From: Deinococcales bacterium
GTDB lineage: Bacteria; Deinococcota; Deinococci; Deinococcales; JAAFIG01
Direction: 5' to 3'
Length of the DNA stretch: 64,000 bases
NCBI GenBank assembly: GCA_031414595.1
Contig: JANNVX010000004.1
Span: 17,047-81,046 of the forward strand
Of the stretch, positions 6,159 through 44,320 are shown piece by piece. Both the position numbers and the translations under genes were made by a program. Position 1 is the stretch's first letter; every line of letters begins with the position of its first letter. Under the pieces are notes generated by a model. The model searched no databases and was not told the origin of the DNA. It saw only the letters and a program-made list of their open reading frames with translations.

Positions 6159-7319
6159 ATGTACGAGGCAAAACCCGAGCATCACTTTACTTTTGGACTT
6201 TGGACAGTAGGCAACATCGGACGCGACCCATTTGGCAATCCAACCCGTAACCCACTGACTGCACCGTATATTGTCCATAAACTGGCAGAATTGGGTGCGT
6301 ATGGTGTGAATTTACACGATAACGACCTAATTCCCATAGACGCAACCCAAGGTGAACGCCAACAAATTTTGCGTGATTTCAAAAAAGCCCTCGCCGACAC
6401 GGGAATGAAAGTCCCAATGGCAACCACCAACTTATTTTCCGACCCTGCCTTTAAGGACGGCGCATTTACCAATGCCAATGCCCAAATTCGTGGTTATGCC
6501 ATCCAAAAAGCCATGAACAGCATGGACTTGGGCGCAGAACTCGGGGCAAAAACCTATGTTTTTTGGGGAGGACGTGAAGGCGCAGAAGTAGACGCTGGCG
6601 GCAATATGCTCAATGCCCTTAGCTACATGCGTGAAGCCATGAATTACTTAGCTGAGTACAGCCAAGACCAAGGCTACGGCTTTAAGTTTGCGCTCGAGCC
6701 AAAACCCAACGAACCTCGCGGCGATATTTACTTTCCTGTGGTTGGTTCGGCACTGGCTTTTATTTACACCCTAGATAAACCAGAACTTTTTGGCTTAAAC
6801 CCAGAAGTTGCCCATGAAACCATGGCTGGCTTAAATTTTGTTCATGCCATCGCCCAAGCCATAGATGCTGGAAAGCTCTTTCATATTGACTTAAACGACC
6901 AGAAAATGGGGCGTTTTGACCAAGACTTGCGCTTTGGTGCAGAAAACATCAAACAAGCCTTCTTGCTGGTTAAGCTGCTCGAGGACACGGGCTACACAGG
7001 CATGAAACACTTTGATGCCCACGCCCTTCGCACCGAAGACGAAGCTGGGGTCTGGGCTTTTGCCAAAGGCTGCATGAGGAATTACTTGATTCTTGCTGAA
7101 AAAGCCAAGCGCTTTAACGATGACAAAGAAATTCAAGCCCTGCTCGAGCATTACCACTTCAAAGACCCAGCAGTCTCGAGCTTAACTGCTAAGTACAGCC
7201 CAAGCAATGCTGCCACCCTAAAAGCCCATAGCTTTGACCGAGTTGCATTAGGCGCTCGTGGACCCGGACTAGAACTGATTGACCAATTGACGATGGAACT
7301 CTTGATGGGCATTCGCTAA
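6159..7319 (+). CDS. xylA: Xylose isomerase (class I)
   Basis: [32 protein letters not shown] and HIDLND motifs; RBS AGGAGG. Confidence 0.97.
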
Positions 7320-10043: not shown

Positions 10044-10071
10044 TTGACACCAGACAACAAAAGGCTATACT
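10044..10071 (+). promoter_or_regulatory. Sigma70-type promoter of the T-box leader
   Basis: TTGACA-16 nt-TATACT. Confidence 0.8.
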
Positions 10072-10074
10072 CGA

Positions 10075-10329
10075 GACGGGAAGAGTACCGAGTAAAAGCC
10101 CCCACAGAGAAGTGTTCCATAAGCTGAGAAGAACACTGGGAAAGCCGCAAGGGAACGTCACCCAAGCAACACCGAGGAAAGAAAGCCTAACCGCAATTAG
10201 AATCCTCTGGGTGCGCCCATCACAGCGCGTTTGAGCGCTCGAGACAACTCGAGAAAAGCGGTGGTAACGCGGGAGCGATTTTTTTCAAAAAACGCCATCT
10301 CGTCCGCAGATTTTACGGACGAGGTGTTT
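10075..10329 (+). ncRNA. T-box riboswitch leader with valine specifier
   Basis: AGAGA box (10106), GCTGAGA loop, specifier GAAC-GTC-A (GUC=Val, 10157); antiterminator GCGG-TGGTAAC-GCGGG (10258-10273) pairs with CTCGT-CCGC (10299-10307); mutually exclusive hairpin CTCGTCCG/CGGACGAG covers the GAGGTG RBS. Confidence 0.92.
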
Positions 10330-11286
10330 ATGTTCACAAAGTATGCCAATTTTGAAACCGCCCAAGCCCATGCCAAACAGAACGGTACTCGAGAACGTGT
10401 GGTGTGTTACATCACCAGAGGACTCGAGTTACTGGTTTTTCTTCACGAAGCCAAGTACCCAACGGCTGGAATTCAAGTTCCAGCCGGCGGACTCGAGGCA
10501 GGGGAGAGCATTTTTGAAGCTGCTATCAGGGAAGCCTTTGAAGAGACTGGTTTACAGAACCTCGAGATTAAAACACACCTTGGTTCTGGACTGTACAAAA
10601 ATGGCAAAAGGCACGAAATTTGGCATTTTGTCTGGCTAACGCTAGGGCAGGGCGAGGCATACTGTCTTGACCCTAAAGATGCACCTGTCGGGCTGGGTCG
10701 CCTCGCCCCTACGGTGAATGAATGGCAACATTTTGCTGAAAATAAATACACTTTTTACTGCCGTTTTGAACTGCTCGAGAATGTGGTTTTGCATTACGAT
10801 ATGGATGCTATGCTGCCCGAACTAGCACAGCGGCTTGGACTCGAGTTGCAAAGTCGGCAAACAAAGCCTCGCTCTGTTGCGATTTGTTACATCACACGCG
10901 GTTCGGAAATCCTGACTTTTAGCGGACATCCAGACGGCGGTATTGGCATACCTGCTGGTGGCATTGAAGACGGCGAAACGCCATTAGAAGCTGCCATGCG
11001 TGAAATTCTTGAGGAGAGCGGGCTGAGTCTCGAGAATCCGATTTACCTTGGACGGCAAGATTATTATTTTAAGGGGCAGCACCCAGAAAATGGTACGCCG
11101 CTCGAGTTTCTTGAGGACAGGTATTACTATTGGTTTAAGACACTCGAGCCGAGGGATTCTTGGGAGTGGGTTGTGTCGGATGGTGTTGGCGATAAGGGCA
11201 AGGTTTTTAAGCATTCGTTTGTGCCGCTCGAGGAAGCAAAGATTGATTGGGAAATGGATGAGTTTATGGGAGAACTTAAGCAGTAG
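10330..11286 (+). CDS. Tandem two-domain Nudix hydrolase
   Basis: Two Nudix boxes, GGLEAGESIFEAAIREAFEETGL and GGIEDGETPLEAAMREILEESGL; RBS GAGGTG before ATG 10330. Confidence 0.9.
   Translation: MFTKYANFETAQAHAKQNGTRERVVCYITRGLELLVFLHEAKYPTAGIQVPAGGLEAGESIFEAAIREAFEETGLQNLEIKTHLGSGLYKNGKRHEIWHFVWLTLGQGEAYCLDPKDAPVGLGRLAPTVNEWQHFAENKYTFYCRFELLENVVLHYDMDAMLPELAQRLGLELQSRQTKPRSVAICYITRGSEILTFSGHPDGGIGIPAGGIEDGETPLEAAMREILEESGLSLENPIYLGRQDYYFKGQHPENGTPLEFLEDRYYYWFKTLEPRDSWEWVVSDGVGDKGKVFKHSFVPLEEAKIDWEMDEFMGELKQ
10649..10712 (-). repeat. GTAG-type REP palindrome, in-frame in the Nudix gene, with a nested ~39-bp insert
   Basis: Reverse strand reads GTAGGGGCGAGG[insert]TATGCCTCGCCCT. Confidence 0.85.
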
Positions 11287-11327
11287 CCCAACTAGCCAAA
11301 GCCTCAAGTATCGAGAAAAAAGGATGT

Positions 11328-11774
11328 ATGAACCAAAATTTGATCATCACAGATGAATTTTCGAATCCAGATTCCGAAATGGAATACCTAAGTGATTATC
11401 CTTTAGATGCCAAAGCTCGAGCCAATGCCGAACAGTGCTGGCAATGCGGTGGTTGCTCGTATTTTTCACCATTTACTACAAGTTATGGTTTGTGTCACAA
11501 CCAAAATTCAAGGCATTATCTCGAAACTGTTTTTGAGCATTTTACCTGTGCTGTTATTGATATTGAATCGTGGGAATACCATAGTTTTGGTGCTGGAGAA
11601 ATCACAACTGAAATTCCAGAAAATGAATTGGATGCAAATGTTTGGGAAGCTGCCAAAAATGCGGTGCTTGCGTTGAAATCACATTATCCAGATGGTGAAT
11701 CACATGATGCTGTTAAACTGGTTTATAGAGTTTTAGACAACAAAGTCAAATTTGTTCTTGAAAAGAAATTCTAG
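11328..11774 (+). CDS. Cys-rich DUF3027-like protein
   Basis: QCGGCSYF...YGLC.N..S......FEHFTC pattern. Confidence 0.6.
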   Translation: MNQNLIITDEFSNPDSEMEYLSDYPLDAKARANAEQCWQCGGCSYFSPFTTSYGLCHNQNSRHYLETVFEHFTCAVIDIESWEYHSFGAGEITTEIPENELDANVWEAAKNAVLALKSHYPDGESHDAVKLVYRVLDNKVKFVLEKKF

Positions 11775-11814
11775 AGCCAAAGCATCAGGCTCGAGCCTCG
11801 AGAAAGAAGGAATC

Positions 11815-13743
11815 ATGAACCAAATTTCTATTGACAAAGCCGCCACAATTATGGGTGTTTCCTCTGCGACCATCAGAAATTGGGTCAAAGCTGGACTGAT
11901 AGAGCCTATCAATGCGCGTCCTATCGCTTTTTCCGAAGAAAGTGTGGCGCTCTTAAAAAATCAAGTCTCGAGTGGTGCGCTACAAAAATTACAAACCAGA
12001 GCCAATAAAGCCCAATCGAAAAATGATTTTATTCCGCTCGAGTACAATTCAAATTCTGGTTTTATCAGTATCTTAAACACCATTTTAGAACAATTTAAGA
12101 ACCATTCTTTAGCCATTGAACCGCTTTTATTTTTAGCTGCTCTTTGTTGTCTCGAGCAGAATAGCGAACTCAAACGCCCAATTCAATCAGATGTTTTTGA
12201 TTTGACCCAAGCAGAATTTACTCGAGTTTTGGTTAGACAAGAAATACTTGGCTGGCGAACTTCTCTGGGGGAAATAACCCATAAGGAACGTTACAAGGAT
12301 ATTTATGACTTACTTTTTACCAAAGACACAGAAGATTTACTGGGGATTTTATACCAGTCTTTACGCAGCGAAGGCAATAAATCGAATTTGGGTTCGTATT
12401 ACACCCCAACGCATTTGGTGCAAGATGCCTTACAATCTGTTCGGCTCGAGACGGTCAGTAATTTCCTAGACCCTTGTTGTGGCACTGGAAAATATTTAAT
12501 CGAGGCAGCAAAAACTTTTTCTTTGCCACCAGAATCTATTTATGGTTTTGATATTGACCAATTGGCTGTACAGATAGCCCGTGTCAATCTGCTGATGCAC
12601 TATAAAAAAGCAGAATTTTCCCCCAATATTTTTTGTCTGGATGCACTTTCTGACTTAGCCAATGGAGACTTTTTTTGCACCACAAATCACCTGATGGGGT
12701 TTTTTGATTTGATTGCCACCAATCCACCTTGGGGAGCGTATAAAAACTCGAGTATTCCAGTTCAGTTTCAGAATGTCCTCGAGTCCAGCGAAACCTATTC
12801 GATGTTTATTCTCAAATCCATGCAATTGCTGAAAAAAAGTGGAGCGCTTTCTTTTATTTTGCCTGAATCTATTCTAAAAATCCGAACTCACAGCGACATT
12901 CGAGAATTTATTGTTAAAAACAGTACAATGATAAAAATAATTCAACTCGGACGACAATTTAGTGGGGTTTTTACACCAGTTGTTCGCTTAGATTTGAAAA
13001 ATGAAATCCCAAACAACAATATGCTTGAACTGCATGACGAAAATAAATTGGTTACTCGAGTTGGTCAAAACAGATTTCTATACAATACCGATTATATTTT
13101 TGATACTCGAGTAGATGATACCGTAGAAGCCTTAATTCAAAAAATTTATGCAAAACCGCATTTGACTTTACAGGGTCATTCAGAGTGGGCGCTTGGGATT
13201 GTCACAGGCGATAACACTAAGTATTTACTCGAGCAGCCAACTCCCACTGCCGAAGCCATTTATAGAGGCATGGATATTAGCCCTTTTTACTTAACTGCTG
13301 CAAAAACATTTATCGAATTTACGCCAAGCCAGTTCCAACAAGTCGCTCCAGAACGGTTTTTTAGAGCAGATGAAAAACTGATTTACAAATTTATTTCAAA
13401 GAAATTGGTTTTTGCATTCGATGATACCCAAGCCCTAACGCTAAACAGCGCCAATATCCTGATTCCAAAATTGCCGAACATGAGCATCAAAGTTACAATG
13501 GCATTTTTGAACTCGAGTGTATTTCAGTTCTTATTTACCAAAAAATTCGCCACCCATAAGGTGCTGCGTGGAGACCTTGAAAAATTACCATTCCCGAATC
13601 TCGAGCCAGATGTCCACAATCAACTCGAGCAGCTTTTAGATAATGTGCTGGAAACAAAAATAGTGAGCGCAGAAATAGACAATTTGATATTTCAGATTTT
13701 TGAACTCACCCAAGAAGAAATAGATTTGATAGAGGGGACATAA
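11815..13743 (+). CDS. Gamma-class N6-adenine DNA methyltransferase with N-terminal HTH and TaqI_C-like target recognition domain
   Basis: GSYYTP, FLDPCCGTG, NPPW; N-terminal AATIMGVSSATIRNW HTH; C-terminal LGIVTGDN...FLNSS. Confidence 0.9.
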   Translation: MNQISIDKAATIMGVSSATIRNWVKAGLIEPINARPIAFSEESVALLKNQVSSGALQKLQTRANKAQSKNDFIPLEYNSNSGFISILNTILEQFKNHSLAIEPLLFLAALCCLEQNSELKRPIQSDVFDLTQAEFTRVLVRQEILGWRTSLGEITHKERYKDIYDLLFTKDTEDLLGILYQSLRSEGNKSNLGSYYTPTHLVQDALQSVRLETVSNFLDPCCGTGKYLIEAAKTFSLPPESIYGFDIDQLAVQIARVNLLMHYKKAEFSPNIFCLDALSDLANGDFFCTTNHLMGFFDLIATNPPWGAYKNSSIPVQFQNVLESSETYSMFILKSMQLLKKSGALSFILPESILKIRTHSDIREFIVKNSTMIKIIQLGRQFSGVFTPVVRLDLKNEIPNNNMLELHDENKLVTRVGQNRFLYNTDYIFDTRVDDTVEALIQKIYAKPHLTLQGHSEWALGIVTGDNTKYLLEQPTPTAEAIYRGMDISPFYLTAAKTFIEFTPSQFQQVAPERFFRADEKLIYKFISKKLVFAFDDTQALTLNSANILIPKLPNMSIKVTMAFLNSSVFQFLFTKKFATHKVLRGDLEKLPFPNLEPDVHNQLEQLLDNVLETKIVSAEIDNLIFQIFELTQEEIDLIEGT

Positions 13744-14483
13744 TGGAAATCTTAAAACAACATTTAGACAATTTACTCGAGCAATTAGAGCAAGAAAAAC
13801 GCGAAGAAATCATGCAGCGATTAGATGATTTACTTTCGGTCTACCCTTTTAACGAATTTGAATTTTTAATCGCAACACTGATGGGAAATAACAAAATTTT
13901 ATTAAACGATTACTACGATCTACGCGACGAATACTTAGCTCGGAATATGTACTTGCATCTTTTTGAAATGACTTCACCCCGAGGATTTGGAGAAAGTTGG
14001 GCGCAAGGTCACTTAAAAGAAATCGTTCCAGAACTGGTTAAGCCTACTCAGAAATTAGACTCGAGCTATTCAGGACAATACGATTTTCTACTCGGCGACA
14101 TCAAAATCGAAGTGAAAGCCTCTCGAGCCGTAGATTTTAATAGCCAAGAAGCACTGTATGTCAAAGCCCTAGCCTCGAGTTCAGGAAAACGCTTCGATAT
14201 GAACTTCCAGCAAGTCAAACCCGCTTGTGCCGATGTTTTTATTTGGATTGGCGTTTGGCGAGATGTGATTCGGTACTGGGTACTGGCATCCAACGAAATT
14301 GCAAACAACAAGTATTACTCGACTGGTCAACACCGAGGTAACACAGGCGAAGGGCAAATACACCTCAAAGACGATAATATCAGTAGTTTCGCAGCTTTTG
14401 AAACCAGCCCAAGGGATTTACTCGAGAAAATAAGGAAAGCCCATCGGAGGCAACATCAAAAAACTCGAGGACGGAGAAAATAG
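13743..14483 (+). CDS. Putative type II restriction endonuclease (PD-(D/E)xK)
   Basis: YD....IEVKAS and FQQVKP motifs; translationally coupled to the methyltransferase (TAATG). Confidence 0.75.
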   Translation: MEILKQHLDNLLEQLEQEKREEIMQRLDDLLSVYPFNEFEFLIATLMGNNKILLNDYYDLRDEYLARNMYLHLFEMTSPRGFGESWAQGHLKEIVPELVKPTQKLDSSYSGQYDFLLGDIKIEVKASRAVDFNSQEALYVKALASSSGKRFDMNFQQVKPACADVFIWIGVWRDVIRYWVLASNEIANNKYYSTGQHRGNTGEGQIHLKDDNISSFAAFETSPRDLLEKIRKAHRRQHQKTRGRRK

Positions 14484-14595
14484 TAGTAAAAATACACAGT
14501 GCCGAGCGCAGTGCCAAGGCTTAGGTTTCTCGAGGAAAGGATTTATGAATAATTTCGACCCAACCATCAAACCAAATTGTCAAAAAATACCCTCT

Positions 14596-14719
14596 CACAG
14601 GGCGACCACAAGCGACCATGCCCGTAAGGTGCGTGTTTATGGTCAAGATAGGGTCGCCCTGTGGTTGGATTGCAAATTTGTGTCCAACCGTAGGGGAGGG
14701 TCTTGTACTCTCCCTGACC
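14596..14719. repeat. REP cluster: CACAGGGCGACC..GGTCGCCCTGTG with nested ~39-bp insert, plus GTAGGGGAGGG..CTCTCCCT
   Basis: 12-bp inverted repeat 14596-14663; GTAG-tagged hairpin 14690-14715. Confidence 0.8.
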
Positions 14720-14765
14720 AGCCAAAGCCCCAAGCTCGAGCCTCGAGAAAACTAAGGATAAAGAA

Positions 14766-15539
14766 ATGAATTTGAAAAAAGCTAGAAAACATTTGAAAGA
14801 ATGGGCAGAACAAGGCTCTGGTTATGTGCAAAAACTTCATTTGGAAAACATTGATGAAGTGAGTGACTTACTATGTTTCGTAGCTGGATACTGCTTTGAA
14901 CTTTCTCGAGAAAAATTTTACGACATAAAACCTAAATCAAATTGGCACTGGAGAATCAATCATAAGAGAACAATATCTCACGGAACTGTATATTGGGATG
15001 AACTATTGATAGATGTGGTTGATGCTGAAAACTATGAACCCCAATATCAGTTTCTTTTAGGTATATATTTTTTATTGCAGAGTAGTGCAATCTATTCAAG
15101 TTCACTTTATCAGATTTGGCTAGGGGGCGAAGAATTTCAGACAATGGTGATTGAAGATGAAGTCCCGATAGCGATTCTGCCGCCAGACTCGCAAAAAATA
15201 ATTTATTGGTATGAAACTGATTTCGCTGAAAGTGATTTTTCCCCTGAATTCATGCCTGCACCAAATATGTTTGCCCGAATTTATTGGCAGGATTTTTTAA
15301 GAAAAAAGTATCCAAAAAAATCTACTTGTTTTGATTGCGGTTCAGACAATGCGACTCATGCACATCATGATGGCAAAGAAGTATCTGAACTTGCAAAAGA
15401 GGGGATTTGGCATCGTCCAGATGAACACAAAGTAGTAATGCTTTGTGCAGAATGTCATGTAAAACGTCACGAAGGTACGAAATCAGCAAATTTCTTAAAA
15501 GTATTTACTGTTGGTCGTCAAAAAAGGAAACAACCATGA
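14766..15539 (+). CDS. Protein with C-terminal zinc-binding HNH endonuclease domain
   Basis: CFDC...HAHH...LCAECHVKRH; stop overlaps the valS ATG. Confidence 0.7.
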   Translation: MNLKKARKHLKEWAEQGSGYVQKLHLENIDEVSDLLCFVAGYCFELSREKFYDIKPKSNWHWRINHKRTISHGTVYWDELLIDVVDAENYEPQYQFLLGIYFLLQSSAIYSSSLYQIWLGGEEFQTMVIEDEVPIAILPPDSQKIIYWYETDFAESDFSPEFMPAPNMFARIYWQDFLRKKYPKKSTCFDCGSDNATHAHHDGKEVSELAKEGIWHRPDEHKVVMLCAECHVKRHEGTKSANFLKVFTVGRQKRKQP

Positions 15540-18169
15540 ATGAATTACCCGCCAAATACGAACCATCGTCTGTCGAATCTTCTTGGTCTGAACTCTGGGC
15601 TAAACCTGGTACGTTTCGTGCCGATGCTACCTCGAGCAAACCTGCTTTTACCATTGTTATCCCACCGCCTAATGTAACGGGTAGCCTCCACCTTGGTCAT
15701 GCGCTCGATAACACAATTATTGATGTCCTGACCCGCTTTAAGCGCATGGCGGGCTTCGAGGCGCTGTATTTGCCGGGGACTGACCATGCGGGAATCAGTA
15801 CCCAAGTGCTGGTCGAAAAAGAACTTGCCCTCGAGGGGCTGCACAAAAACGACCTCGGGCGCGAGAAATTCCTCGAGCGAGTCTGGGCATTCAAAGAAAA
15901 AAATGGCGGCACGATTCTCAAGCAACTGACCCGCCTTGGTATCTCTGCCGATTGGTCTCGAGAACGTTTTACCATGGATGCTGGGCTTTCCAAAGCCGTG
16001 CGACGTACTTTTGTCGAATACGTAGCGAAGGGCATGGCGTACCGTGGCGAGAAAATTGTCAATTGGGACCCTGTTGCCCAAACCGTTCTGTCTGACCTCG
16101 AAGTTGACCGTGAGGATCGTCAGGGCAAAATGTACACTTTATCCTACGCCCTCGAGGATGGAAATGGCGTAATCAACGTGGCAACTGTCCGTCCTGAAAC
16201 GATTTTTGCTGACCAAGCCGTGGCGGTTCATCCCGATGATGCGCGGTTCTCGAGCCTTGTTGGGCAAAATGTGCGGATTCCGCTAACCGATAGGCTGATT
16301 CCAATTATTGCTGACTCGAGTGTTGAAATGGATTTTGGAACGGGTTGTCTTAAAATCACCCCAGCCCACGACCCAACCGATTTTGAAATTGGTTTGCGCC
16401 ACAACTTAGCCACGCCCAGTGTGATTGATAAATTTGCCAAACTGACTTCCGACCTTGTGCCAGAAGAATTTAGGGGTATCGAGCGTTTCGCTGCCCGTAA
16501 AGCTGTGGTCAAGGCACTCGAGGCATCAGGCGCACTGCTCGAGGCAAAAGATTATAAAGTCAGTATTGGCATTTCGGAGCGCACCAAAGAACCAATTGAG
16601 CCAATGGTCATGACCCAGTGGTGGTGCAAAATGGATAAGCCCGCCAAGCAAGTTCTCGAGGCACTGGAAGATGGCAGAATAAAAACTGTGCCTGAGCGCT
16701 ACACCAAGGTCAATCGTGATTGGCTCGAGAATATCCGTGAATGGGCGATTGGGCGGCAACTCTGGTGGGGGCATCAAATTCCAGCTTGGTACGATGCGGA
16801 TGGTAAAATCTATGTGCCAGACCTCGAGAATCCTGATTTGGATTGTGACCAAGACCCTCGTTACGCGCATCTGAATCTGACTCGAGACCCTGATGTTTTC
16901 GATACGTGGTTTTCGAGCGCACTCTGGAATTTTAGTACCATGGGCTACCCTGACCAAACCGAGGATTTAGCCAAGTTCTACCCGAATAGTGTGCTGGTGA
17001 CAGGTTATGACATCCTGTTTTTCTGGGTAGCACGGATGCAAATGGCGGGCTTTGAATTTACGGGTCAAGCGCCGTTTCATACGGTCATGCTGCATGGTTT
17101 GTACTTGGATGCCAAGGGTCAGAAGATGAGTAAATCCAAGAATAATGGCATTGACCCACTCGAGTTAATGGATAAGTACGGCGTGGATGGTTGTCGTTTT
17201 GCATGGGCGTATTTGTCTACGGGTGGGCAGGACATCAAGCACGATGAACGCCGTTACGAAATGGGACGAAATTTTTCCAATAAACTCTGGAATGCGTCGC
17301 GTTTTGCAATGATGAATCTCGAGCTTGGGCATTCGGAAATGGGCATGAGCTTAGGCGCTGCGCCAGCCAGTTTTGGTGCGACCCTGGCGGATGCTTGGAT
17401 TGTCTCGAGGCTGTCCGAAACCATTGCAACTGCCACGGCACAACTCGAGGCGTATGACCTTGGCGCTTCAATTCGGACCATTTACAGTTTTACTTGGGAT
17501 GATTTTTGTGATTGGTACATCGAAGCGGCTAAACCAGCTTTGAAAGCACAAAATCCTGTTACCCAAACCACGATTAAACGGGTTCTCGAGGCGATTCTGA
17601 AATTGCTTCATCCGTTCATGCCATTTATCACTTCAGAAATTTATGCAGCATTAAACCCTAAGCATGGACAATTGGCGTTTGAACCTTTTCCTCGAGCCGA
17701 TGAATTTGCGGTGGATACAGCTTCACTCGAGGAATTCGAGAAAGTCAAAAATGCAATTACGGCTGTGCGGGTCTTGCGGAATGAATTGATGATTCCGCCA
17801 ATGCAGATGCTGACCGTGGCTGTGGACGGGGTGAACTCTGGTGCAGTAGCCAAGAACCTCGAGACGTTTACTGGACTTGCCAAAGCCGAACTGGGCGAGG
17901 TGAGCGGCAAAATTATTAACTCGGTCGCGCCTGGACTCGAGGTGCTACTAGCACTCGAGGGGCTGATAGATACTACCGAATACGTGGCTCGGGGCAAGAA
18001 AAAAGTGGTTGAACTCGAGAAGCAAGTGGCACAAGCCAAAGGTAAGTTAAGCAATGAGAATTTCTTTAAGAATGCCCCACAAGAAGTTCTGCTCGAGGAA
18101 CAAAGGCGGATAGAGGATTTTGGAATGCAGTTAGAGCGCTTGCAAAAAGTTTTGGCGCAATTTGCTTAA
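15536..18169 (+). CDS. valS: Valine--tRNA ligase
   Basis: PPPNVTGSLHLGH, DHAGISTQ, RQLWWGHQIP, KMSKS motifs and C-terminal coiled arm. Confidence 0.98.
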   Translation: MNELPAKYEPSSVESSWSELWAKPGTFRADATSSKPAFTIVIPPPNVTGSLHLGHALDNTIIDVLTRFKRMAGFEALYLPGTDHAGISTQVLVEKELALEGLHKNDLGREKFLERVWAFKEKNGGTILKQLTRLGISADWSRERFTMDAGLSKAVRRTFVEYVAKGMAYRGEKIVNWDPVAQTVLSDLEVDREDRQGKMYTLSYALEDGNGVINVATVRPETIFADQAVAVHPDDARFSSLVGQNVRIPLTDRLIPIIADSSVEMDFGTGCLKITPAHDPTDFEIGLRHNLATPSVIDKFAKLTSDLVPEEFRGIERFAARKAVVKALEASGALLEAKDYKVSIGISERTKEPIEPMVMTQWWCKMDKPAKQVLEALEDGRIKTVPERYTKVNRDWLENIREWAIGRQLWWGHQIPAWYDADGKIYVPDLENPDLDCDQDPRYAHLNLTRDPDVFDTWFSSALWNFSTMGYPDQTEDLAKFYPNSVLVTGYDILFFWVARMQMAGFEFTGQAPFHTVMLHGLYLDAKGQKMSKSKNNGIDPLELMDKYGVDGCRFAWAYLSTGGQDIKHDERRYEMGRNFSNKLWNASRFAMMNLELGHSEMGMSLGAAPASFGATLADAWIVSRLSETIATATAQLEAYDLGASIRTIYSFTWDDFCDWYIEAAKPALKAQNPVTQTTIKRVLEAILKLLHPFMPFITSEIYAALNPKHGQLAFEPFPRADEFAVDTASLEEFEKVKNAITAVRVLRNELMIPPMQMLTVAVDGVNSGAVAKNLETFTGLAKAELGEVSGKIINSVAPGLEVLLALEGLIDTTEYVARGKKKVVELEKQVAQAKGKLSNENFFKNAPQEVLLEEQRRIEDFGMQLERLQKVLAQFA

Positions 18170-18175
18170 AAGAAT

Positions 18176-18217
18176 TTACCTCACGCACTATCTAAAATTA
18201 GGTGCGTGAGGTAAAAA
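18176..18217 (+). terminator. Hairpin after valS
   Basis: TTACCTCACGCAC / GTGCGTGAGGTAA inverted repeat. Confidence 0.75.
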
Positions 18218-18276
18218 TCAATTGGGATAAAACTTAACTCAAAAAGCAAGTGATTAGATTTAGAGGAAAACAAAAC

Positions 18277-19299
18277 ATGATACTGAGTGGACGTTACCTT
18301 GGTGAAATTATTGATGCTTTTGGCACTATCGCCGAACGCGCCGAACTTCGTGCCAAAATTGGATTTACGGATTTACATCGTGTCCTTGAAGATTTTTTCA
18401 TGAATATCCTAAATGAATTGGATAACCTGAGTCTGACAAATACCAATAGAGAAGCTGCTAATAGTGCTGGAATAGATCTGTACGATGCCAATTCAAAAAT
18501 CGGTATTCAAATCACAACGGTTAGTAGTTCGGACAAAATAAATAATACTCTACGTGTGGTTCACGAACAAAATAATACTCTCAAAAGTTCTAATGTCGAA
18601 GCGTTGTACGTGTTAATTATTGGCAAAAAACAAGGCTCATATAAACTAGATTCTACGCTGTGTGAGGCGCTTGATTTCAATGAAAAAGACAATATTTGGG
18701 ATATTGTTACATTGTCCCGAAAACTTATTGGAATTAAACCTGATGTACTTGAGAGCATTTATAAGTTTGTCATGCGTGAACTTACTCGAGTAAGAATAGA
18801 ACTTGAATTACCTGACTCTAATGGCGAATTTCCCACCGATTTAGGGCAATACATGGAAGTAAGCCCATCAAATGAATTAGGAGAATGTAAGAAGCTCAAA
18901 GAATTCTGCACTGCTAATGGGTGGGACAATGGTTTTGAAGAGGCTATTTCTGAGCTAAGACTTTACTTTCAAAAATTAAGCTCATTGCCAAGAATTACCC
19001 GACAAGTGCTTGGTGAAATTATTGATAATCGTGAACCTAATCAATCCAAAATATATGTTATTTGGGAAAAATTTCGACGAATTTGTACATATCCTGAACT
19101 TGATACGGAATTTAACATTCTTGTATACGACAATTATCTTACACGAAACATTCATGAAGAGGAACGAATTATCACAGTTCACGTTAAGGGTGATGGGGAT
19201 AGGATTCTAGGGTATCTTGAGCCTTTCCTACAGCGGGAAAGTAAAACTTTCAATAAATTATTTTCAACTTTTGATTTCTCAATCTTTGAGAACCCATAA
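18277..19299 (+). CDS. SMEK domain-containing protein (defence-associated nuclease-like fold)
   Basis: D.H...EDFF..ILN.....L.N.N......IDL.D......QIT.....KI..T pattern; AT-rich. Confidence 0.75.
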   Translation: MILSGRYLGEIIDAFGTIAERAELRAKIGFTDLHRVLEDFFMNILNELDNLSLTNTNREAANSAGIDLYDANSKIGIQITTVSSSDKINNTLRVVHEQNNTLKSSNVEALYVLIIGKKQGSYKLDSTLCEALDFNEKDNIWDIVTLSRKLIGIKPDVLESIYKFVMRELTRVRIELELPDSNGEFPTDLGQYMEVSPSNELGECKKLKEFCTANGWDNGFEEAISELRLYFQKLSSLPRITRQVLGEIIDNREPNQSKIYVIWEKFRRICTYPELDTEFNILVYDNYLTRNIHEEERIITVHVKGDGDRILGYLEPFLQRESKTFNKLFSTFDFSIFENP

Positions 19300-19450
19300 A
19301 TTCTGTTACTAATTTTCAAATGTATAGTTTCGCATTTCGCATAATTTCACGTTTTTGCACGTCCGTTAGAACAACATTTTTTATGCGAAAAATCCCTCAT
19401 TTACTTCATAAATTGCAATTCACTTATTTCACTTGTGCTATACTCGAGCT

Positions 19451-19870
19451 ATGCGACCGATTGTTCTGTCTGCCCAAGCCGCCCAGACTGCTCGAGAAGT
19501 TGGGCAACAACTCCTATCCGGACAACTCGCTTTTCACTCGAGCAATGGCGAAGTTACGTTATTGCCACAAGAAACCTTGCGTGTTTTCCAAGAAGTTCTC
19601 GAGCAATTGGGGCAAGAACGCTCTGTGGTGGTTTTACCGCTTGATACAGAACTTAGTACCTTTGAAGCTGCCGATGTGCTGAATGTCTCACGTCCCTTTG
19701 TGACCAAACTACTCGAGCGCGGCGAAATGCCGTTTCGGATGGTTGGGGCGCACCATCGGGTACTACTGGCGGATGTGTTGAAATACCAATCTGAGCAACG
19801 TCAGCGCAGTCTAATTGCGATGCAGGAATTAGCCGAACTCTCACAAGAACTTGGGTTGTACGATTCGTGA
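19451..19870 (+). CDS. Excisionase-like HTH antitoxin/regulator
   Basis: ELSTFEAADVLNVSRPFVTKLLERGEMPFRMVGAHHRV; TG-x-TATACT 6 nt before ATG. Confidence 0.85.
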   Translation: MRPIVLSAQAAQTAREVGQQLLSGQLAFHSSNGEVTLLPQETLRVFQEVLEQLGQERSVVVLPLDTELSTFEAADVLNVSRPFVTKLLERGEMPFRMVGAHHRVLLADVLKYQSEQRQRSLIAMQELAELSQELGLYDS

Positions 19871-20430
19871 TTGCGGTTCTCGATGCTAATGTGTTGTACT
19901 CGGCACGTTTACGAGATTTTTTTATTTGGCTGGCATTACAAAATGCGTACCAAGCCCATTGGACAGCCGAAATCCAAGCCGAATGGAAACGTAATTTATT
20001 GCAAAATCGACCTGAAATTCTTGTGGCTAATCTCGAGCGTACCCAAAAACTGATGGATAGGGCTTTACCTGATGCGTTACTCGAGAATGTGCCTCGGCTC
20101 GAGGTTATTCTTCCAGATACGAACGACATTCATGTTCTTGAGGCAGCCATTTATGCACAAGCGGGTTATGTGGTGACAAACAATTTACGAGACTTTCCTC
20201 AAGCCATCCTCGAACCTTTTGGTGTGATTGCTTTGGGTCCTGATGACTTTGTGATGCGTATTCTTGAACGTACACCAAATCTTGTGTTGAAGGCGATTCA
20301 AATGCAGGTGGCGAATTTACAACGCCCTCCAATTGGCATCAATACCATGTTGCTGCAACTCGAGGAACAGGGATTGGTGAAAGTTGTGGATTGGTTGCGC
20401 GGACAATTGTTACCAGAAAGTCGTGCTTGA
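19867..20430 (+). CDS. PIN domain toxin (PIN_3/VapC-like)
   Basis: VLDANVLY, LPDTNDIHVLEAA and VTNNLRDFP motifs. Confidence 0.88.
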   Translation: MIAVLDANVLYSARLRDFFIWLALQNAYQAHWTAEIQAEWKRNLLQNRPEILVANLERTQKLMDRALPDALLENVPRLEVILPDTNDIHVLEAAIYAQAGYVVTNNLRDFPQAILEPFGVIALGPDDFVMRILERTPNLVLKAIQMQVANLQRPPIGINTMLLQLEEQGLVKVVDWLRGQLLPESRA

Positions 20431-20584
20431 ACTCGAGAAGCAAGTGCAGCAAGCAAAAGGCAAATTGTCTAACGAGAATTTTGTCAAGAATGCCTCAGAA
20501 GAAGTGCTTCTCGAGGAACGCCGTCGGATTGAAGATTTTGGAATACAACTCGAGCGGTTACAAAAAGTGCTGGCGCAATTCTAA
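20429..20584 (+). pseudogene. valS: Orphan duplicate of the valS 3' end (last ~51 codons)
   Basis: ELEKQVQQAKGKLSNENFVKNASEEVLLEERRRIEDFGIQLERLQKVLAQF aligns without gaps to 18011-18163. Confidence 0.93.
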
Positions 20585-20625: not shown

Positions 20626-20704
20626 ACGATTCAAGTGCATAAATTTGACGAACACTGAATACTGTGCTATTCTTATTCCTATCAGCAGCCAAGAGGCTGT
20701 TTTT

Positions 20705-21622
20705 TTATTGCTTAAATTCCGTATCGCGTTCTGCTTCTAAAACTGCATTCTCGAGGGCAAGCAGTGCAGTCTCGCCTTCTCCACCATGAGCGCGTTCTGG
20801 ACGGTCTACCCATGCTTGGAAACCCTGTTCTTTGCGTCGAATCAGAATTTCTGAGTAGCCAGCAGCTTCGGCTCGAGCAAAAAGTGCGTTGACATCGCTG
20901 TGCTTAAATCCTTGCTTCTCGAGAACACGCCGTAATGTGATTTCCCGTGCTTCCATTGTTCCGCCCTTGGCAAAGTATCGTGCCAGACTTTGCGCCCAGT
21001 CACCTCTGGCGGTAATTCTTGCCATGCGCTCTAAGGCAGTCTCGAGTTCAGATGCGCTTGGAATTCTGTAGGTGTTTTCGTGCATGACCAATTCGGGCTG
21101 AATCCTTGGGCGTTGGTCTGGGGTTTCGTCAGGTACGCCAATCGTCAGCCCAGCAAATGGCAGCACCCCATTTGGTAACTCGCACAAGTCTATAATTTCC
21201 TCGAGTGCGCTTAAGACCCCACCAATCCAGCAGCCTTGGTAGCCAAGGCATTCGGCGGCGTGTAACATCGTCTGACCAGCCAAGACCGCATCTCCGATGC
21301 CAAAATGAATTGCCACAGCATCCCAAGTCCCAAATTCATAGCCTTTATGCTCGAGCAGGAGTTGTAGGCGTTTGACATCGGCACAAATCAAAAATGCTTC
21401 GGGCGCAGTCTCCATATGGGCGTTGTTGGTTAGTCCTGCCACTCGAGTTTTGGTTTGGTTGGTTAAGCGAATAAAGCTATACATCTGGGCAGTTGCATCA
21501 GTTGGGGCGTGCTGAGCGCAGTACAGAATTTGCTCGAGATGCCCAGTTTCCAGTGGTTGGGGTTTGTATTTACGAATGGTGCGGTGGTTGACAAAAACGC
21601 TTAGGCGCGGGTCTAGGTTCAT
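20705..21622 (-). CDS. Nitroreductase (NfsA/FRP-like) with a short C-terminal extension
   Basis: HRTIRKY, Q.YSFI, AAECLGYQGCWIGG and RPR motifs. Confidence 0.85.
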   Translation of the reverse strand: MNLDPRLSVFVNHRTIRKYKPQPLETGHLEQILYCAQHAPTDATAQMYSFIRLTNQTKTRVAGLTNNAHMETAPEAFLICADVKRLQLLLEHKGYEFGTWDAVAIHFGIGDAVLAGQTMLHAAECLGYQGCWIGGVLSALEEIIDLCELPNGVLPFAGLTIGVPDETPDQRPRIQPELVMHENTYRIPSASELETALERMARITARGDWAQSLARYFAKGGTMEAREITLRRVLEKQGFKHSDVNALFARAEAAGYSEILIRRKEQGFQAWVDRPERAHGGEGETALLALENAVLEAERDTEFKQ

Positions 21623-40579: not shown

Positions 40580-40601
40580 GGGCGAACCTTGTGTTCGCCC
40601 T
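40576..40601 (+). repeat. GTAG-type REP supplying the purN stop codon
   Basis: GTAGGGGCGAACCTTGTGTTCGCCCT; TAG at 40577-40579. Confidence 0.85.
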
Positions 40602-40660
40602 GTGCAGCACATGCCCTTTTCAAGAATGTCCAGCAAGACATCCATTGGAGGAGAAATAAA

Positions 40661-43600
40661 ATGTCCACATACCGAATTGAAATCCGCAACCGTAATAATC
40701 TCGAGGTCAACCGCTCAAGACTATACTTTGTCAAAGCCCTAATTCTCGAGCAGCAAGCAGTCGAACGCCTCTGCCGTGAAGTCTTATGCGACCCTGTGAC
40801 CGAATCATTTGTCGTGCAAACCGTAGGGGCGAGGCATGCCTCGCCCCTACAACCAAACATTTCTTTTTTTGAATTAACCCTCCAAGCTGGTGTAACCGAT
40901 TCTGCCGCCGAAAGCCTGCTCGAGGCGGCAAAAATCTTAAGCATCCCGCTCGAGTCGGCTGCGACTGGCGAACGCTTTGAATATGCCCAAGAAACCACAC
41001 TCGAGGAACTAAAAGTCTTAGCCCATGAACGTGCCAACGAAGTCATCGAACGCTTCACCTTAAACCAAGAAATCACCCCACCATTTGTTGAACACGCGAA
41101 CCTTTCCAGCGCCGAAGTCGAGTACACCGATTTGCGTGGCGTAACTGATGCCCGTCTGCTTGAGGTATCCAAGGAACGCCGCCTAGCACTGGATTTACTC
41201 GAGATGCAAGCTGTTAAAGCCTATTATGAAAAAGAAAACCGCCCAGCCGCCGATGTTGAACTCGAGATGATTGCCCAAACGTGGTCAGAGCATTGTGTCC
41301 ATAAGACCTTTCGGGCGCGTATCGAAACCAACACGGGCGAAGTGGTGAATGGCTTACTGAAAACCTTTATCGCCAAAGCCACCAAAGACTTAAATAAATC
41401 GTGGGTGCGCTCAGCATTTGTAGATAACGCTGGAATTATCGAATTCGATGATGATTATGATGTGGCTGTGAAAGTCGAAACCCATAATCATCCAAGCGCC
41501 CTCGAGCCGTTTGGTGGGGCAAATACCGGTGTCGGTGGCGTGATTCGTGATGTGCTGGCATTGGGCGCAAAACCGATTGCCAATATGGATGTCTTGTGCT
41601 TTGGGAGTCTCGAGCAGGAATCTGTGCCAGACGGTGTGCTGCACCCTAAACGTGTTCAAGAAGGTGTGGTGCGAGGCATCGAAGACTACGGCAATAAAAT
41701 GGGTATTCCGACGGTCAATGGTGCGGTTTTGTACCACAAGGGTTATACCGCCAATCCACTGGTGTACTGCGGTTGCGTGGGTATCTTGCCAGCCTCGGTT
41801 AAAAACGCTAAGCCGCTCGAGGCAAAAGCAGGGGATTTAATCATCGCTATCGGTGGACGAACTGGGCGCGATGGTTTGCGCGGCGCGACCTTCTCGAGTT
41901 TAGAAATGGACACCAGCACTGCCGAAATTGCCAGTACCAGTGTACAAATTGGGCAGCCAATCACCGAGAAAAAAGTTCAAGAAGTGTTGCTTCGAGCTAA
42001 AGCCGAAGGTTTGTATACCGCCATGACCGATTGTGGTGCGGGTGGCTTCTCGAGCGCCGTCGGAGAAATGGGCAAAGACCTAGGCGCGTACATTCGCCTC
42101 GAGAATGCGCTCTTAAAGTATCCCGGTTTGCGCCCATGGGAAATCTGGTTATCCGAAGCCCAAGAACGCATGGTGCTGAGTGTGCCGCAGGGGAATTTAG
42201 AACCTTTACAAACCCTGTGCGATTCTCAAGATGTTGAACTGGTTCACTTGGGAGAGTTCACCGACTCCGAACGACTTGTTCTAACCCATGAAGGCAAAAC
42301 CGTTGGAGAACTTGACCTCGAGTTCCTGCATGAAGGCATTCCACAACGTCAACTAAAAGCCACTGTAGGGGAGAGGTATGCTTCGACCCTGACCGAGCGC
42401 GACCCTCGAGAAATAGACCCCGAAATAGATTTATTAAATTTACTAGCACACCCAAACATCCGTTCTCGAGAAAAAATTATTCGCCTTTTTGACCATGAAA
42501 TCAAAGGCGGCACCGCTGTTCGTCCTCTGGTTGGTGCTGCCAATCATGGACCCTCCGACGCAGCCGTGATTATTCCCAATCCGGGCAAGTCCCAAAAAGC
42601 CTTGGCGATTTCTAACGGCATCTGCCCGCAATTTGGCTTGTCCGACCCCTACGCCATGACATGGGCAGCCATAGACGAAGCCGTGCGAAACGCGGTTTGT
42701 GTTGGCGCTGACCCAGACCAAATTGCTATTCTCGATAATTTTTGCTGGGGCAACCCAACCCTGCCAGACCGCATGGGCAGCTTGCTCGAGACTTCACGGG
42801 CGTGTTATGACGCAGCGATGGCGTATGGCACACCATTTGTTTCGGGTAAGGACAGTTTGTACAACGAGTACACCGACGAGGACGGTAACAAACACGCCAT
42901 TCCGGGAACGCTTCTAATCTCTGCGATTGGAATTGTGCCAGACGCAACAAAAACTGTAACAATGGATTTCAAGCAAGCGGGTAATTTGGTCTATCTATTG
43001 GGCGAAACTCGAGATGAATTGGGTCAAAGCCATTACGCGCTCATGCACGGTCTCGAGGGTGGGATTGTACCGCAACCGATTCAGAATCCGCTCGAGCGTT
43101 ACCGCGCTGTGCACCAAGCCATTCAAGAGGGTTTAGTCCAAAGCGCTCATGATTGCTCAGAAGGTGGTTTAGCCGTTGCCTTATCCGAAATGTGCCTTGC
43201 TGGACGGCTTGGGATGAACTGGCAACTGCTGGGGGACAACCAAGACCCTGTTTTTGATACCCAGACCATTTTATTTTCGGAAACGGCTGGTAGAATTGTT
43301 CTCGAGGTACGCCCAGAACACCAAGCACAACTCGAGATATTATTCGCGGGTATTTCACTCTCTCAAATTGGTTTGGTCACAGCCGAACCAGAATTCATTG
43401 TTTTTTTTGGAATGGATGAAGTCATAGAAACCCCCATTGATGTTCTCGAGATGGCATGGCGTGATGAAATCGCTCCAAATCCTGTTCCAACCGTAGGGGC
43501 GAGGCATGCCTCGCCCTTGCCCTCGCCCGTCGTAAAAGCAGGACAGACACAGGGGGCTGTCCCTACAAGTACAACAAAAACCAAAACCATAATTATTCAT

Positions 43601-44320
43601 GCCAACGGCACAAACCGAGACCACGATGCAGCCTTGGCGGTTGAATTGGCTGGTGGAAACCCAGAAATTGTGCATTTGAACCAGCTTTTTGCTGGTCAGC
43701 GCAAACTCGAGGATTACGGTTTTTTAATTGTTCCTGGTGGTTTTTCGTATGGCGACGACCTCGGGGCAGGGGTGATGTGGGCTTTGGCATTGCGTGAAGG
43801 TCTTGGCGAACAACTCGAGAATTTTGTCTCGAGCGGCAAGCCAGTCTTGGGGATCTGCAATGGTTTCCAAACACTGGTAAAAGCGGGTGTCCTACCGGGC
43901 GGTTTTGAACCAAGAACCAGTACCCTGACGTACAACGCCCAAGGACATTTTGAATGCCGTTGGGTGACACTCGAGGCGAATCAAAACTCGAGCAGTTTTT
44001 GGTTGGCGGGTTTAGATGATGGTCTGGACACACCCATTGCCCACGGTGAAGGACGTTTCTTGTGTGATGATACAACCCTAGCGCATCTCGAGGAAAACAA
44101 CTTAGTGGCACTGCGTTACCTTGGCGATGAATACCCCACCAACCCAAACGGCAGCCTCTCGAGAATCGCGGGAATTACCAACGTGGCGGGCAATGTGCTT
44201 GGGCTAATGCCGCACCCAGAAAATCATATTTTTGATTGGCAACATCCGCGTTATCATCGTGGTGAGCGTGGGCGCAGTGGCTTGACGCTTTTTGAGAATG
44301 CGTTAAAGCAGATAAAATGA
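40661..44320 (+). CDS. purL: Single-chain FGAM synthase (PurL with fused PurQ glutaminase domain)
   Basis: QTWSEHCVHK, KVETHNHPS, DCGAGG, SEAQERM, PGGFSYGD, GICNGFQ and MPHPE motifs; GGAGG RBS before ATG 40661. Confidence 0.96.
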   Translation: MSTYRIEIRNRNNLEVNRSRLYFVKALILEQQAVERLCREVLCDPVTESFVVQTVGARHASPLQPNISFFELTLQAGVTDSAAESLLEAAKILSIPLESAATGERFEYAQETTLEELKVLAHERANEVIERFTLNQEITPPFVEHANLSSAEVEYTDLRGVTDARLLEVSKERRLALDLLEMQAVKAYYEKENRPAADVELEMIAQTWSEHCVHKTFRARIETNTGEVVNGLLKTFIAKATKDLNKSWVRSAFVDNAGIIEFDDDYDVAVKVETHNHPSALEPFGGANTGVGGVIRDVLALGAKPIANMDVLCFGSLEQESVPDGVLHPKRVQEGVVRGIEDYGNKMGIPTVNGAVLYHKGYTANPLVYCGCVGILPASVKNAKPLEAKAGDLIIAIGGRTGRDGLRGATFSSLEMDTSTAEIASTSVQIGQPITEKKVQEVLLRAKAEGLYTAMTDCGAGGFSSAVGEMGKDLGAYIRLENALLKYPGLRPWEIWLSEAQERMVLSVPQGNLEPLQTLCDSQDVELVHLGEFTDSERLVLTHEGKTVGELDLEFLHEGIPQRQLKATVGERYASTLTERDPREIDPEIDLLNLLAHPNIRSREKIIRLFDHEIKGGTAVRPLVGAANHGPSDAAVIIPNPGKSQKALAISNGICPQFGLSDPYAMTWAAIDEAVRNAVCVGADPDQIAILDNFCWGNPTLPDRMGSLLETSRACYDAAMAYGTPFVSGKDSLYNEYTDEDGNKHAIPGTLLISAIGIVPDATKTVTMDFKQAGNLVYLLGETRDELGQSHYALMHGLEGGIVPQPIQNPLERYRAVHQAIQEGLVQSAHDCSEGGLAVALSEMCLAGRLGMNWQLLGDNQDPVFDTQTILFSETAGRIVLEVRPEHQAQLEILFAGISLSQIGLVTAEPEFIVFFGMDEVIETPIDVLEMAWRDEIAPNPVPTVGARHASPLPSPVVKAGQTQGAVPTSTTKTKTIIIHANGTNRDHDAALAVELAGGNPEIVHLNQLFAGQRKLEDYGFLIVPGGFSYGDDLGAGVMWALALREGLGEQLENFVSSGKPVLGICNGFQTLVKAGVLPGGFEPRTSTLTYNAQGHFECRWVTLEANQNSSSFWLAGLDDGLDTPIAHGEGRFLCDDTTLAHLEENNLVALRYLGDEYPTNPNGSLSRIAGITNVAGNVLGLMPHPENHIFDWQHPRYHRGERGRSGLTLFENALKQIK
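40823..40850. repeat. Perfect 28-bp GTAG REP palindrome in-frame in purL
   Basis: GTAGGGGCGAGGCATGCCTCGCCCCTAC, read as VGARHASPL. Confidence 0.92.
42365..42394 (+). repeat. Degenerate GTAG REP in-frame in purL
   Basis: GTAGGGGAGAGGTATGCTTCGACCCTGACC, read as VGERYASTLT. Confidence 0.7.
43493..43566. repeat. Inverted REP doublet in the PurL-PurQ linker
   Basis: GTAGGGGCGAGGCATGCCTCGCCCT ... GGACAGACACAGGGGGCTGTCCCTAC. Confidence 0.88.

Follow-up and report, generated by a model that had tools for sequence, protein, structure and literature searches.

Why would a leader that reads as a valine (Val) T-box lie about 5.28 kb before valS, the gene for valine--tRNA ligase, with defence genes in between? 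The question arises in a 64,000-nt stretch of DNA from a Deinococcales bacterium (GCA_031414595.1, contig JANNVX010000004.1, positions 17,047-81,046, forward strand; the whole stretch is called the window), where a first-pass annotation had placed Nudix, restriction-modification (R-M) and HNH genes as cargo inside a T-box-regulated unit. On balance we favor reading the locus as a Val T-box operon, probably of class I type, of an uncultured Deinococcota lineage, in which the Nudix gene comes first and valS last, with a variable middle of defence and toxin-antitoxin (TA) cassettes. For comparison, 80 valS loci were collected by a search with valyl-tRNA synthetase (ValRS); 77 are from Firmicutes and three from Deinococcota relatives, L001, L003 and L002, whose ValRS is 93, 83, and 75% identical to that of the window, respectively. 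Coordinates of the features are given in Table 1.

The leader begins with a TTGACA-16-TATACT promoter-like site. It agrees with the promoter of the first-pass annotation and ranks best among the 20 promoter-like sites found between 9600 and 19500, the range scanned for promoter-like and strict terminator-like sites; their number as such is not enriched (20 vs 17.6 +/- 4.1 in shuffles). A covariance search with RF00230 aligned the full model (1-219) to the leader with 61 bits (E 7.9e-13 in a 601-nt search), and at E <= 0.01 this T-box was the sole RNA match across the whole window (E 8.5e-11). The specifier loop reads GAA-C-GUC-A (10153-10160), with GUC at 10157-10159 and the purine A next to it, and the UGGU bulge is found at 10262-10265, inside GGUGGUAACGCG. 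This bulge would suit the A73 discriminator that we take tRNA-Val to carry; neither the window nor L001-L003 yielded a tRNA gene for comparison. In Stem I, the segments ACAGAGA and GCUGAGA align with high posterior probability to the AGAGA and GGUGAAA positions of the model, that is, to the AG bulge and distal loop. According to PMC7778990, transcriptional T-boxes have a long Stem I and those of the translational class a short one. The long Stem I with AG bulge and distal loop seen here therefore fits the transcriptional class better than the translational class.

A second leader was found in L002, at 6675-6917 of that locus (53.5 bits, E 5.2e-9), 3.1 kb before valS. Although the two leaders are only about 67% identical (blastn), the GUC specifier is kept in GAA-C-GUC-G, GGUGGUAACGCGGGA is identical to the window, and so are the hairpin arms. 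Of the 48 predicted base pairs in the two-sequence alignment, six were compensatory, with distal Stem I contributing four and Stem III two, and none was broken. The leader alignment also places the same -10 hexamer, TATACT, in front of the L002 leader, with TTGTCC as its -35 element. The antiterminator folds with -15.5 and -16.6 kcal/mol in the window and in L002, respectively, and the strand CUCGUCCGC is common to the antiterminator and the terminator. Judged by these features, which could be read directly in the sequence and are kept in L002, the leader is an intact Val-specific T-box, with specifier, bulge and antiterminator as the first-pass annotation had described them. Stem III of the window leader (10238-10253) consists of two CTCGAG palindromes (CUCGAG-acaa-CUCGAG), a hexamer treated further below; in L002 this stem is kept with a different sequence.

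The distance to the synthetase gene is unusual. In 58 of the 77 Firmicutes loci a T-box motif was detected 78-384 nt (median 110.5) before the valS match, in line with the earlier remark that such leaders normally stand next to the gene for the synthetase, and in the remaining 19 none was detected. In the window, the motif starts at 10260, which gives the interval of about 5.28 kb named above.

The leader ends in a hairpin (10296-10326) of -17.9 kcal/mol (z -3.74; 0/200 shuffles as stable), followed by UUUAUGUU. Its counterpart in L002 is still more stable (-24.9 kcal/mol, z -5.76), and UUUUUC separates it from a GTG start codon. In both genomes, the ribosome-binding site of the Nudix gene (GAGG, at 10321-10324 in the window) sits in the 3' arm of the hairpin, and the start codon, within the U tract, follows the hairpin after 3 nt (ATG) in the window and after 6 nt (GTG) in L002. 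The hairpin could thus act as a terminator and a sequestrator at once.

The first gene encodes a tandem two-domain Nudix hydrolase. Compared by eye with GX5EX7REUXEEXGU, both Nudix boxes of the translation, GGLEAGESIFEAAIREAFEETGL and GGIEDGETPLEAAMREILEESGL, are complete. Orthologues are present in L003 (72% identity) and L002 (42%, a three-domain protein of 479 aa), and about 50 of the 70 homologues found at E <= 0.001 have two or three domains. Homologues named by organism come from Deinococcota, save three weak matches (two from Chloroflexota, one unclassified). No NCBIfam equivalog reached its cut-off with this protein, and the closest PDB relatives were an 8-oxo-dGTPase domain, MutT/Nudix proteins and an Ap4A hydrolase (E 7e-9 to 7e-6). 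Such an enzyme might clear by-products of the synthetase such as Ap4A, or alarmones. Since the gene recurs in relatives and adjoins the leader in both the window and L002, we take it to be the conserved head of the unit and the gene adjoining the switch, so that its earlier description as nucleotide-sanitising cargo had to be revised.

Every gene from Nudix through valS lies on the + strand, and adjoining genes overlap as ATGA or sit 41-61 nt apart. The five co-oriented genes reported between the T-box and valS were all recovered, together with a doubtful sixth open reading frame (ORF), orf74. None of the seven strict terminator-like sites in the scanned range is on the + strand, and the 41 nt after the Nudix gene are a copy of the junction element described below, free of hairpins and U runs. 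U-tract terminators do occur in this genome, at 20684-20711 on the + strand and at 9675-9653 on the - strand. Across the four genomes, the 300 nt upstream of valS have in common only a ribosome-binding site, 5-15 nt from the ATG, although a different gene abuts valS in each; valS thus lacks a conserved promoter of its own. A switch specific for Val would make no biological sense unless its control extended to valS. The most economical, if unproven, reading is that cargo and valS are probably co-transcribed from the T-box promoter. With the Nudix gene set apart as the head of the unit, the claim that the cargo lies inside a T-box-regulated unit would stand for the other genes, which are co-oriented, tightly packed and not interrupted by a strict + strand terminator.

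Under this reading, uncharged tRNA-Val(GAC) would pair with GUC and UGGU and hold the antiterminator, so that the polymerase could read past 10329 and the Nudix ribosome-binding site would be freed. The polycistronic RNA would then be translated cassette by cassette, by way of the junction ribosome-binding sites and ATGA coupling, ending with valS. With charged tRNA-Val, the hairpin would terminate transcription and mask the Nudix ribosome-binding site. Expression of valS and, as a by-product, of the cargo would in this way follow the charging of tRNA-Val.

Several observations weigh against a Val T-box operon of this extent. The leader scores of 61 bits in the window and 53.5 bits in L002 are both below the Rfam gathering score of 93, and a scan of the window at the gathering threshold therefore returned no RNA family; the T-box appears in E-value mode only. 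The expected T-box model is thus matched at full length and as the only RNA in the window, at a score below the curated cut-off. The leader is visible in two of the four genomes, the window and L002, as the L003 locus begins within the Nudix gene and the L001 contig within the cassette array, which places their leaders outside the sequence read. All related genomes are metagenome-assembled, the source of L002 being a complete chromosome of 59% GC. Inside the unit, six + strand promoter-like sites match at 9/12 positions, including those at 11557, 12900, 12914, and 13471; as many would be expected by chance, so that these sites do not speak for or against internal promoters. A lenient scan returned 17 weak hairpin-plus-T candidates from the Nudix start to 18160, among them one at 11460 in orf148 with -13.1 kcal/mol, and did not discriminate. 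Hairpins in the junctions and in the structured segment 14596-14718 could stop or process transcripts. R-M and TA modules are usually self-regulated from their own promoters, and the methyltransferase of the window carries an N-terminal helix-turn-helix (HTH) domain.

These points bear most directly on a narrower explanation, possible although rather unlikely, in which the T-box controls the Nudix gene only, the cassettes and valS use internal promoters, and the 5.2-kb gap results from insertions that uncoupled the two. Because the Nudix ribosome-binding site is in the hairpin arm and the start follows 3-6 nt on in both genomes, the switch does appear to be built around the Nudix gene. The self-regulation normal for TA and R-M modules, the HTH of the methyltransferase, the 9/12 sites just listed, and the junctions standing directly 5' of the antitoxin genes in L003 agree with such an arrangement. 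Control of the Nudix gene alone would, however, leave a Val sensor on a Nudix hydrolase without evident logic, and neither a conserved sequence upstream of valS nor a strict terminator after the Nudix gene accompanies it. By eye, the junctions contain no -10-like A/T-rich hexamer, and no scanned promoter-like site falls in them.

Comparing the interval between T-box and valS across the four genomes, we found that the cargo differs and is always on the valS strand. In the window, it consists of orf148, a methyltransferase (MTase) and restriction endonuclease (REase) pair, a decayed stretch and an HNH-like gene. The Nudix-valS interval of L003 extends over 9.2 kb and contains a 212-aa ORF, an antitoxin with a PIN toxin, an MTase with a REase, and PDC-S02 (DUF1016 nuclease) with HicB; then follow another antitoxin, accompanied by a PIN fragment of 24 codons, HEC-01A/B (AAA_21 + DUF4276), and a DRT reverse transcriptase gene (RT_UG13b, 8.2e-140). 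The cargo of L001 is a PIN gene, whose product is 80% identical to the PIN protein of L003, with two small ORFs, and that of L002 a 140-aa ORF, the same antitoxin as in L003, and a 252-aa ORF. The PIN fragment of L003 (6593-6667) follows its intact antitoxin as a remnant, and the pair duplicates the antitoxin-PIN cassette of 1474-2072 in decayed form.

Composition sets this material apart. In the window, the cargo has a GC content of 36-41%, vs 48.7% in the Nudix gene and 49.7% in valS, and in L002 it has 33-48% vs 60%. The hexamer CTCGAG is found 9.5 times per kb in valS and at a native level in the two R-M genes (6.7 and 8.1 per kb). Few copies are present in orf148 (2.2 per kb), in the HNH-like gene (1.3), and in the SMEK gene downstream of valS (1.0). 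Because of this difference in density, the R-M cassette, shared with L003, fits an older acquisition and the other cassettes fit younger arrivals. The middle of the Nudix-valS interval is thus probably a hotspot collecting horizontally acquired, co-oriented defence and TA cassettes. Transcribed and terminator-free, and placed where a deletion puts an essential gene at risk, the slot is most likely where such cargo simply settled, and the defence genes probably have no need of a tRNA signal.

The cassettes are separated by a recurrent junction element. In the window, the stretches before orf148, the MTase gene and the HNH-like gene are mutually alike, and the fullest junction reads stop codon, CCTGAACCGTAGGGG, a short variable hairpin, (C)CAACCAGCCAAAGCCCCAAGC(TCGAGC)CTCGAGAAA, ribosome-binding site and ATG. 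Of its 14-nt core, CCAAAGCCCCAAGC, the window and L001 (401) have one exact copy each and L003 has five (1441, 4848, 6357, 6689, and 8577), always on the + strand and within the Nudix-valS interval; the core is absent from L002 and the other 77 valS loci. Two degenerate copies lie in the window (11296 and 11777) and one in L003 (2112). In an alignment of ten junction copies, CCAAAGC was invariant. Homology between the R-M cassettes of the window and L003 (blastn) starts at the core, 11777 in the one corresponding to 2112 in the other, and breaks off some 14 nt short of the REase stop codon. Each junction provides the ribosome-binding site of the next cassette. A junction of 89 nt had no match in plasmid or phage collections. 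The start of the long junction form, AACCGTAGGGG, also has exact copies at 40819-40829 and 43489-43499 in a purL-like gene (40589-44320); allowing up to one mismatch, four matches were found vs 0.57 expected.

From these repeats, a more specific idea can be put forward, tentative and on the whole doubtful, of an integrase-less capture platform, in which promoterless defence and TA cassettes would be inserted and swapped at a dedicated junction of about 35-90 nt carrying a ribosome-binding site, with the T-box as common expression switch and valS as anchor against loss. In the favored reading, too, cassettes would be exchanged at the junction repeats, be it through some site-specific enzyme or, once DNA has been taken up, through homologous recombination. 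The array resembles an integron array in layout, and none of the 58 window proteins scanned for domains (two short ORFs of the 59-ORF list were left out) carries an integrase, recombinase or transposase Pfam domain. Folded as single-stranded DNA, five long junction copies gave z scores of -0.73, -1.51, +1.14, -0.79, and -1.43, no better than shuffles, which lends no support to the junction as an attC-like hairpin; no GTTRRRY core was seen in the junctions by eye.

An adaptive version of the T-box operon, in which the cargo was selected for induction when tRNA-Val charging falls during phage attack or starvation, is improbable in our view. It presupposes the same architecture, the cargo is overwhelmingly defence and TA genes in three genomes, and the arrangement persists across 75-93% ValRS identity. 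The cargo, however, turns over freely and includes decayed pieces (the L003 PIN fragment; in the window, the degenerate junction with orf74), so that hitch-hiking is a better fit than finely adjusted regulation. After valS there is another defence island, which lies outside any T-box logic, and there is no obvious benefit in co-inducing a restriction enzyme with its methylase. That the leader is a decaying relic without a regulatory role, in a constitutively transcribed unit, would agree with the low bit scores and is nevertheless very improbable, given the identity of specifier, bulge and hairpin arms between leaders otherwise so diverged, the six compensatory and zero broken pairs, and the promoter hexamers kept in L002.

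Among known systems, the class I valS T-boxes of Firmicutes (e.g., Bacillus valS) come closest to the leader, with the same long Stem I, GUC plus purine, AG bulge and distal loop, Stem II/IIA-B, Stem III, UGGN bulge and competing terminator hairpin. Unlike these, the window leader belongs to a host of the phylum Deinococcota, scores below the Rfam cut-off, lies kilobases instead of some hundred nucleotides (the 78-384 nt of the 58 loci) before valS, and has the first gene's ribosome-binding site within an arm of the terminator, with the start codon in the U tract. In D. radiodurans, only Ile and Gly T-boxes are reported in the portion of PMC2494555 at hand. The same portion gives a precedent for a tRNA ligase that is not first in its T-box operon; there, too, the ligase is reached by read-through from a leader of matching specificity, but the upstream gene is a single metabolically related one or another ligase, whereas here four to 12 unrelated defence and TA genes intervene, which appear to be acquired horizontally and vary among close relatives.

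The middle of the unit invites comparison with sedentary chromosomal integrons, which store anti-phage cassettes (10.1101/2024.07.02.601686). Integrons likewise hold compact, co-oriented defence and TA cassettes that vary among relatives, with a repeated site and one upstream promoter. The window differs in having no integrase among the 58 proteins scanned and no sign of attC-like folding in its junction, and in nesting the array between conserved genes of an essential operon with a riboswitch upstream. Defence islands or hotspots between core genes likewise have variable defence content and a GC content lower than their flanks. To our knowledge, defence hotspots do not usually show a strict single orientation, stop/start overlaps, a repeated junction with ribosome-binding site, or a place within a regulated operon.

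New, as far as we can judge, is the combination, a junction-delimited defence and TA array inside what appears to be a Deinococcota T-box operon, with no integrase in view. In the limited literature covered, we found neither this combination nor a T-box ahead of defence genes or of a Nudix gene described. Should transcription from the T-box promoter extend over the array, the levels of restriction, TA and reverse-transcriptase defence would be set by an amino-acid-sensing riboswitch, a direct link from translation stress to immunity. Regardless of regulation, defence cargo shelters inside what appears to be an essential operon, and the standardised junction hints at an undescribed recombination system in Deinococcota. 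The leader would also extend Val T-boxes to this phylum, as a case missed by the curated Rfam threshold.

Table 1. Features of the T-box-valS locus and of the region downstream, in positions of the window.
Feature	Position	Strand	Basis and remarks
Promoter-like site	10044-10071	+	-35 TTGACA, 16-nt spacer, -10 TATACT; 11/12 positions match
T-box leader, RF00230-like	10064-10310	+	Covariance model; long Stem I, Stem II/IIA-B, Stem III, antiterminator
Putative terminator/sequestrator hairpin	10296-10329	+	Folding; 11 bp, 9-nt loop, plus UUU
Tandem two-domain Nudix hydrolase	10330-11286	+	PF00293 twice, E 3.5e-29; GC 48.7%
Junction J1	11287-11327	+	Junction alignment; degenerate core CCAAAGCCTCAAGT and ribosome-binding site
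orf148, Cys-rich, cassette 1	11328-11774	+	GC 37.4%; CTCGAG 2.2 per kb
Junction J2	11775-11814	+	Junction alignment; AGCCAAAGCATCAGGCTCGAGCCTCGAGAAA and ribosome-binding site; L003 R-M homology begins
Type II N6-adenine DNA methyltransferase, cassette 2	11815-13743	+	PADLOC MTase_II 1.8e-105
Type II restriction endonuclease, cassette 2	13743-14483	+	PADLOC REase_II 6.8e-68
Structured spacer	14484-14768	+	Folding; degenerate junction 14517-14547, orf74, three hairpins 14596-14718, junction J4
orf74, doubtful, no family	14545-14769	+	ORF list
Junction J4, exact core	14722-14735	+	Inside structured spacer
HNH-like 257-aa protein, cassette 3	14766-15539	+	C-terminal zinc motif; GC 36.2%
valS, valine--tRNA ligase	15536-18169	+	NF004349, 1098 bits vs cut-off 704; GC 49.7%
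13-bp hairpin after valS stop	18176-18214	+	Sequence; no U tract on + strand; similar in L001 and L003
Downstream island	18250-20430	+	Pfam; SMEK-domain (18250/18277-19299), HTH_17 (19433-19870), PIN_3 (19867-20430)
Relic second copy of last ~155 nt of valS	20427-20583	+	blastn, 70-82% to valS 3' ends of L001, L002 and L003
Canonical intrinsic terminator after relic valS 3' end	20684-20711	+	7-bp stem, then TTTTTATTGC

The individual cargo genes of the window differ in how well they can be named. For orf148, neither Pfam, NCBIfam nor PADLOC gave a match, and a language-model atlas returned no named family (best score 0.88). The MTase carries the Pfam domains N6_Mtase, TaqI_C and Eco57I behind an N-terminal HTH_17, with a TaqI_C-like specificity domain, and is 68% identical to its L003 copy. 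The REase (246 aa) is 87% identical to that of L003, and its start overlaps the MTase stop at 13743; an N6-adenine MTase and a REase are thus adjacent, as in Type II R-M systems. The REase family is highly conserved and very widely distributed; more than 4005 homologues were found, many about 70% identical, and those listed are unnamed or labeled hypothetical; the few named sources are Rhodocyclaceae, Gallionella, Methylococcales and Bipolaricaulota. The idea that it is an isoschizomer cutting CTCGAG was dropped, as it has no Pfam match, its homologues are unnamed, and a plasmid collection gave one weak match.

The 285-nt spacer after the REase gene is strongly structured (-93.4 kcal/mol, z -4.48; 0/200 shuffles as stable). 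Its three consecutive hairpins include one perfect 12-bp inverted repeat, CACAGGGCGACC, and have no U tract; only the last of them recurs in L001, as part of a junction. No credible Rfam match was obtained for the region 14400-14850.

For the HNH-like 257-aa protein, a database of 5.8 billion proteins yielded three homologues at E <= 0.001 among 89 candidates, and the motif CxxC..HAHH..CxxCH is invariant in all four sequences of the family. Its ten best family-bearing matches in the language-model atlas are all HNH (scores 0.90-0.93), with only 143 shared features. Neither Pfam, even when the C-terminal 88 aa were searched at E <= 5, nor a sequence search of PDB gave a match, and the AlphaFold2 (AF2) model from the four-sequence alignment was too poor for a fold search (predicted local distance difference test, pLDDT, 43.4). 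Motif and atlas make the HNH-like label reasonable but unproven. The other part of the earlier description of this gene, that its stop overlaps the valS ATG, is plainly visible as ATGA.

Defence or TA cargo flanks valS on both sides. The downstream island is collinear with L003 and includes a PADLOC match to Aga_REase-PNTD (7.3e-33). The 3' end of valS occurs twice in the window, as part of the gene (18009-18169) and as the relic copy, and the two bracket the SMEK, HTH_17 and PIN_3 genes; L003 shows a like duplication (12480-12634 and 14865-15024), and L002 has a single 3' end. The relic is followed by a hairpin and then by the canonical terminator. The island therefore looks like an integration into the valS 3' end that brought a replacement end. 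Genomic islands at 3' ends, classically those of tRNA or tmRNA genes, likewise duplicate the end of their target, here the last ~155 nt of valS; unlike in those, the apparent target codes for a protein, the synthetase, and the scanned proteins of the island include no integrase.

Elsewhere in the window, an AAA_21/AAA_15 ATPase gene (436 aa) overlaps that of a 299-aa familyless protein at 52524-54730, and the two may form a two-gene defence module. The hexamer CTCGAG occurs 385 times in the window, about 6 per kb, vs 8.3 +/- 3.1 expected, and is seven times as frequent as the next 6-mer palindrome, with no extended consensus in its flanks (examples are at 25-30 and 10070-10075). A search of the limited literature covered found nothing on CTCGAG as an iterated palindrome in Deinococcus. 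Within native genes, it is mostly in codon phase 0, encoding Leu-Glu (9/10 copies in the Nudix gene, 18/25 in valS), and occurs in all phases in the R-M genes. The hexamer is similarly dense in L001-L003, whose GC contents range from 43 to 59%.

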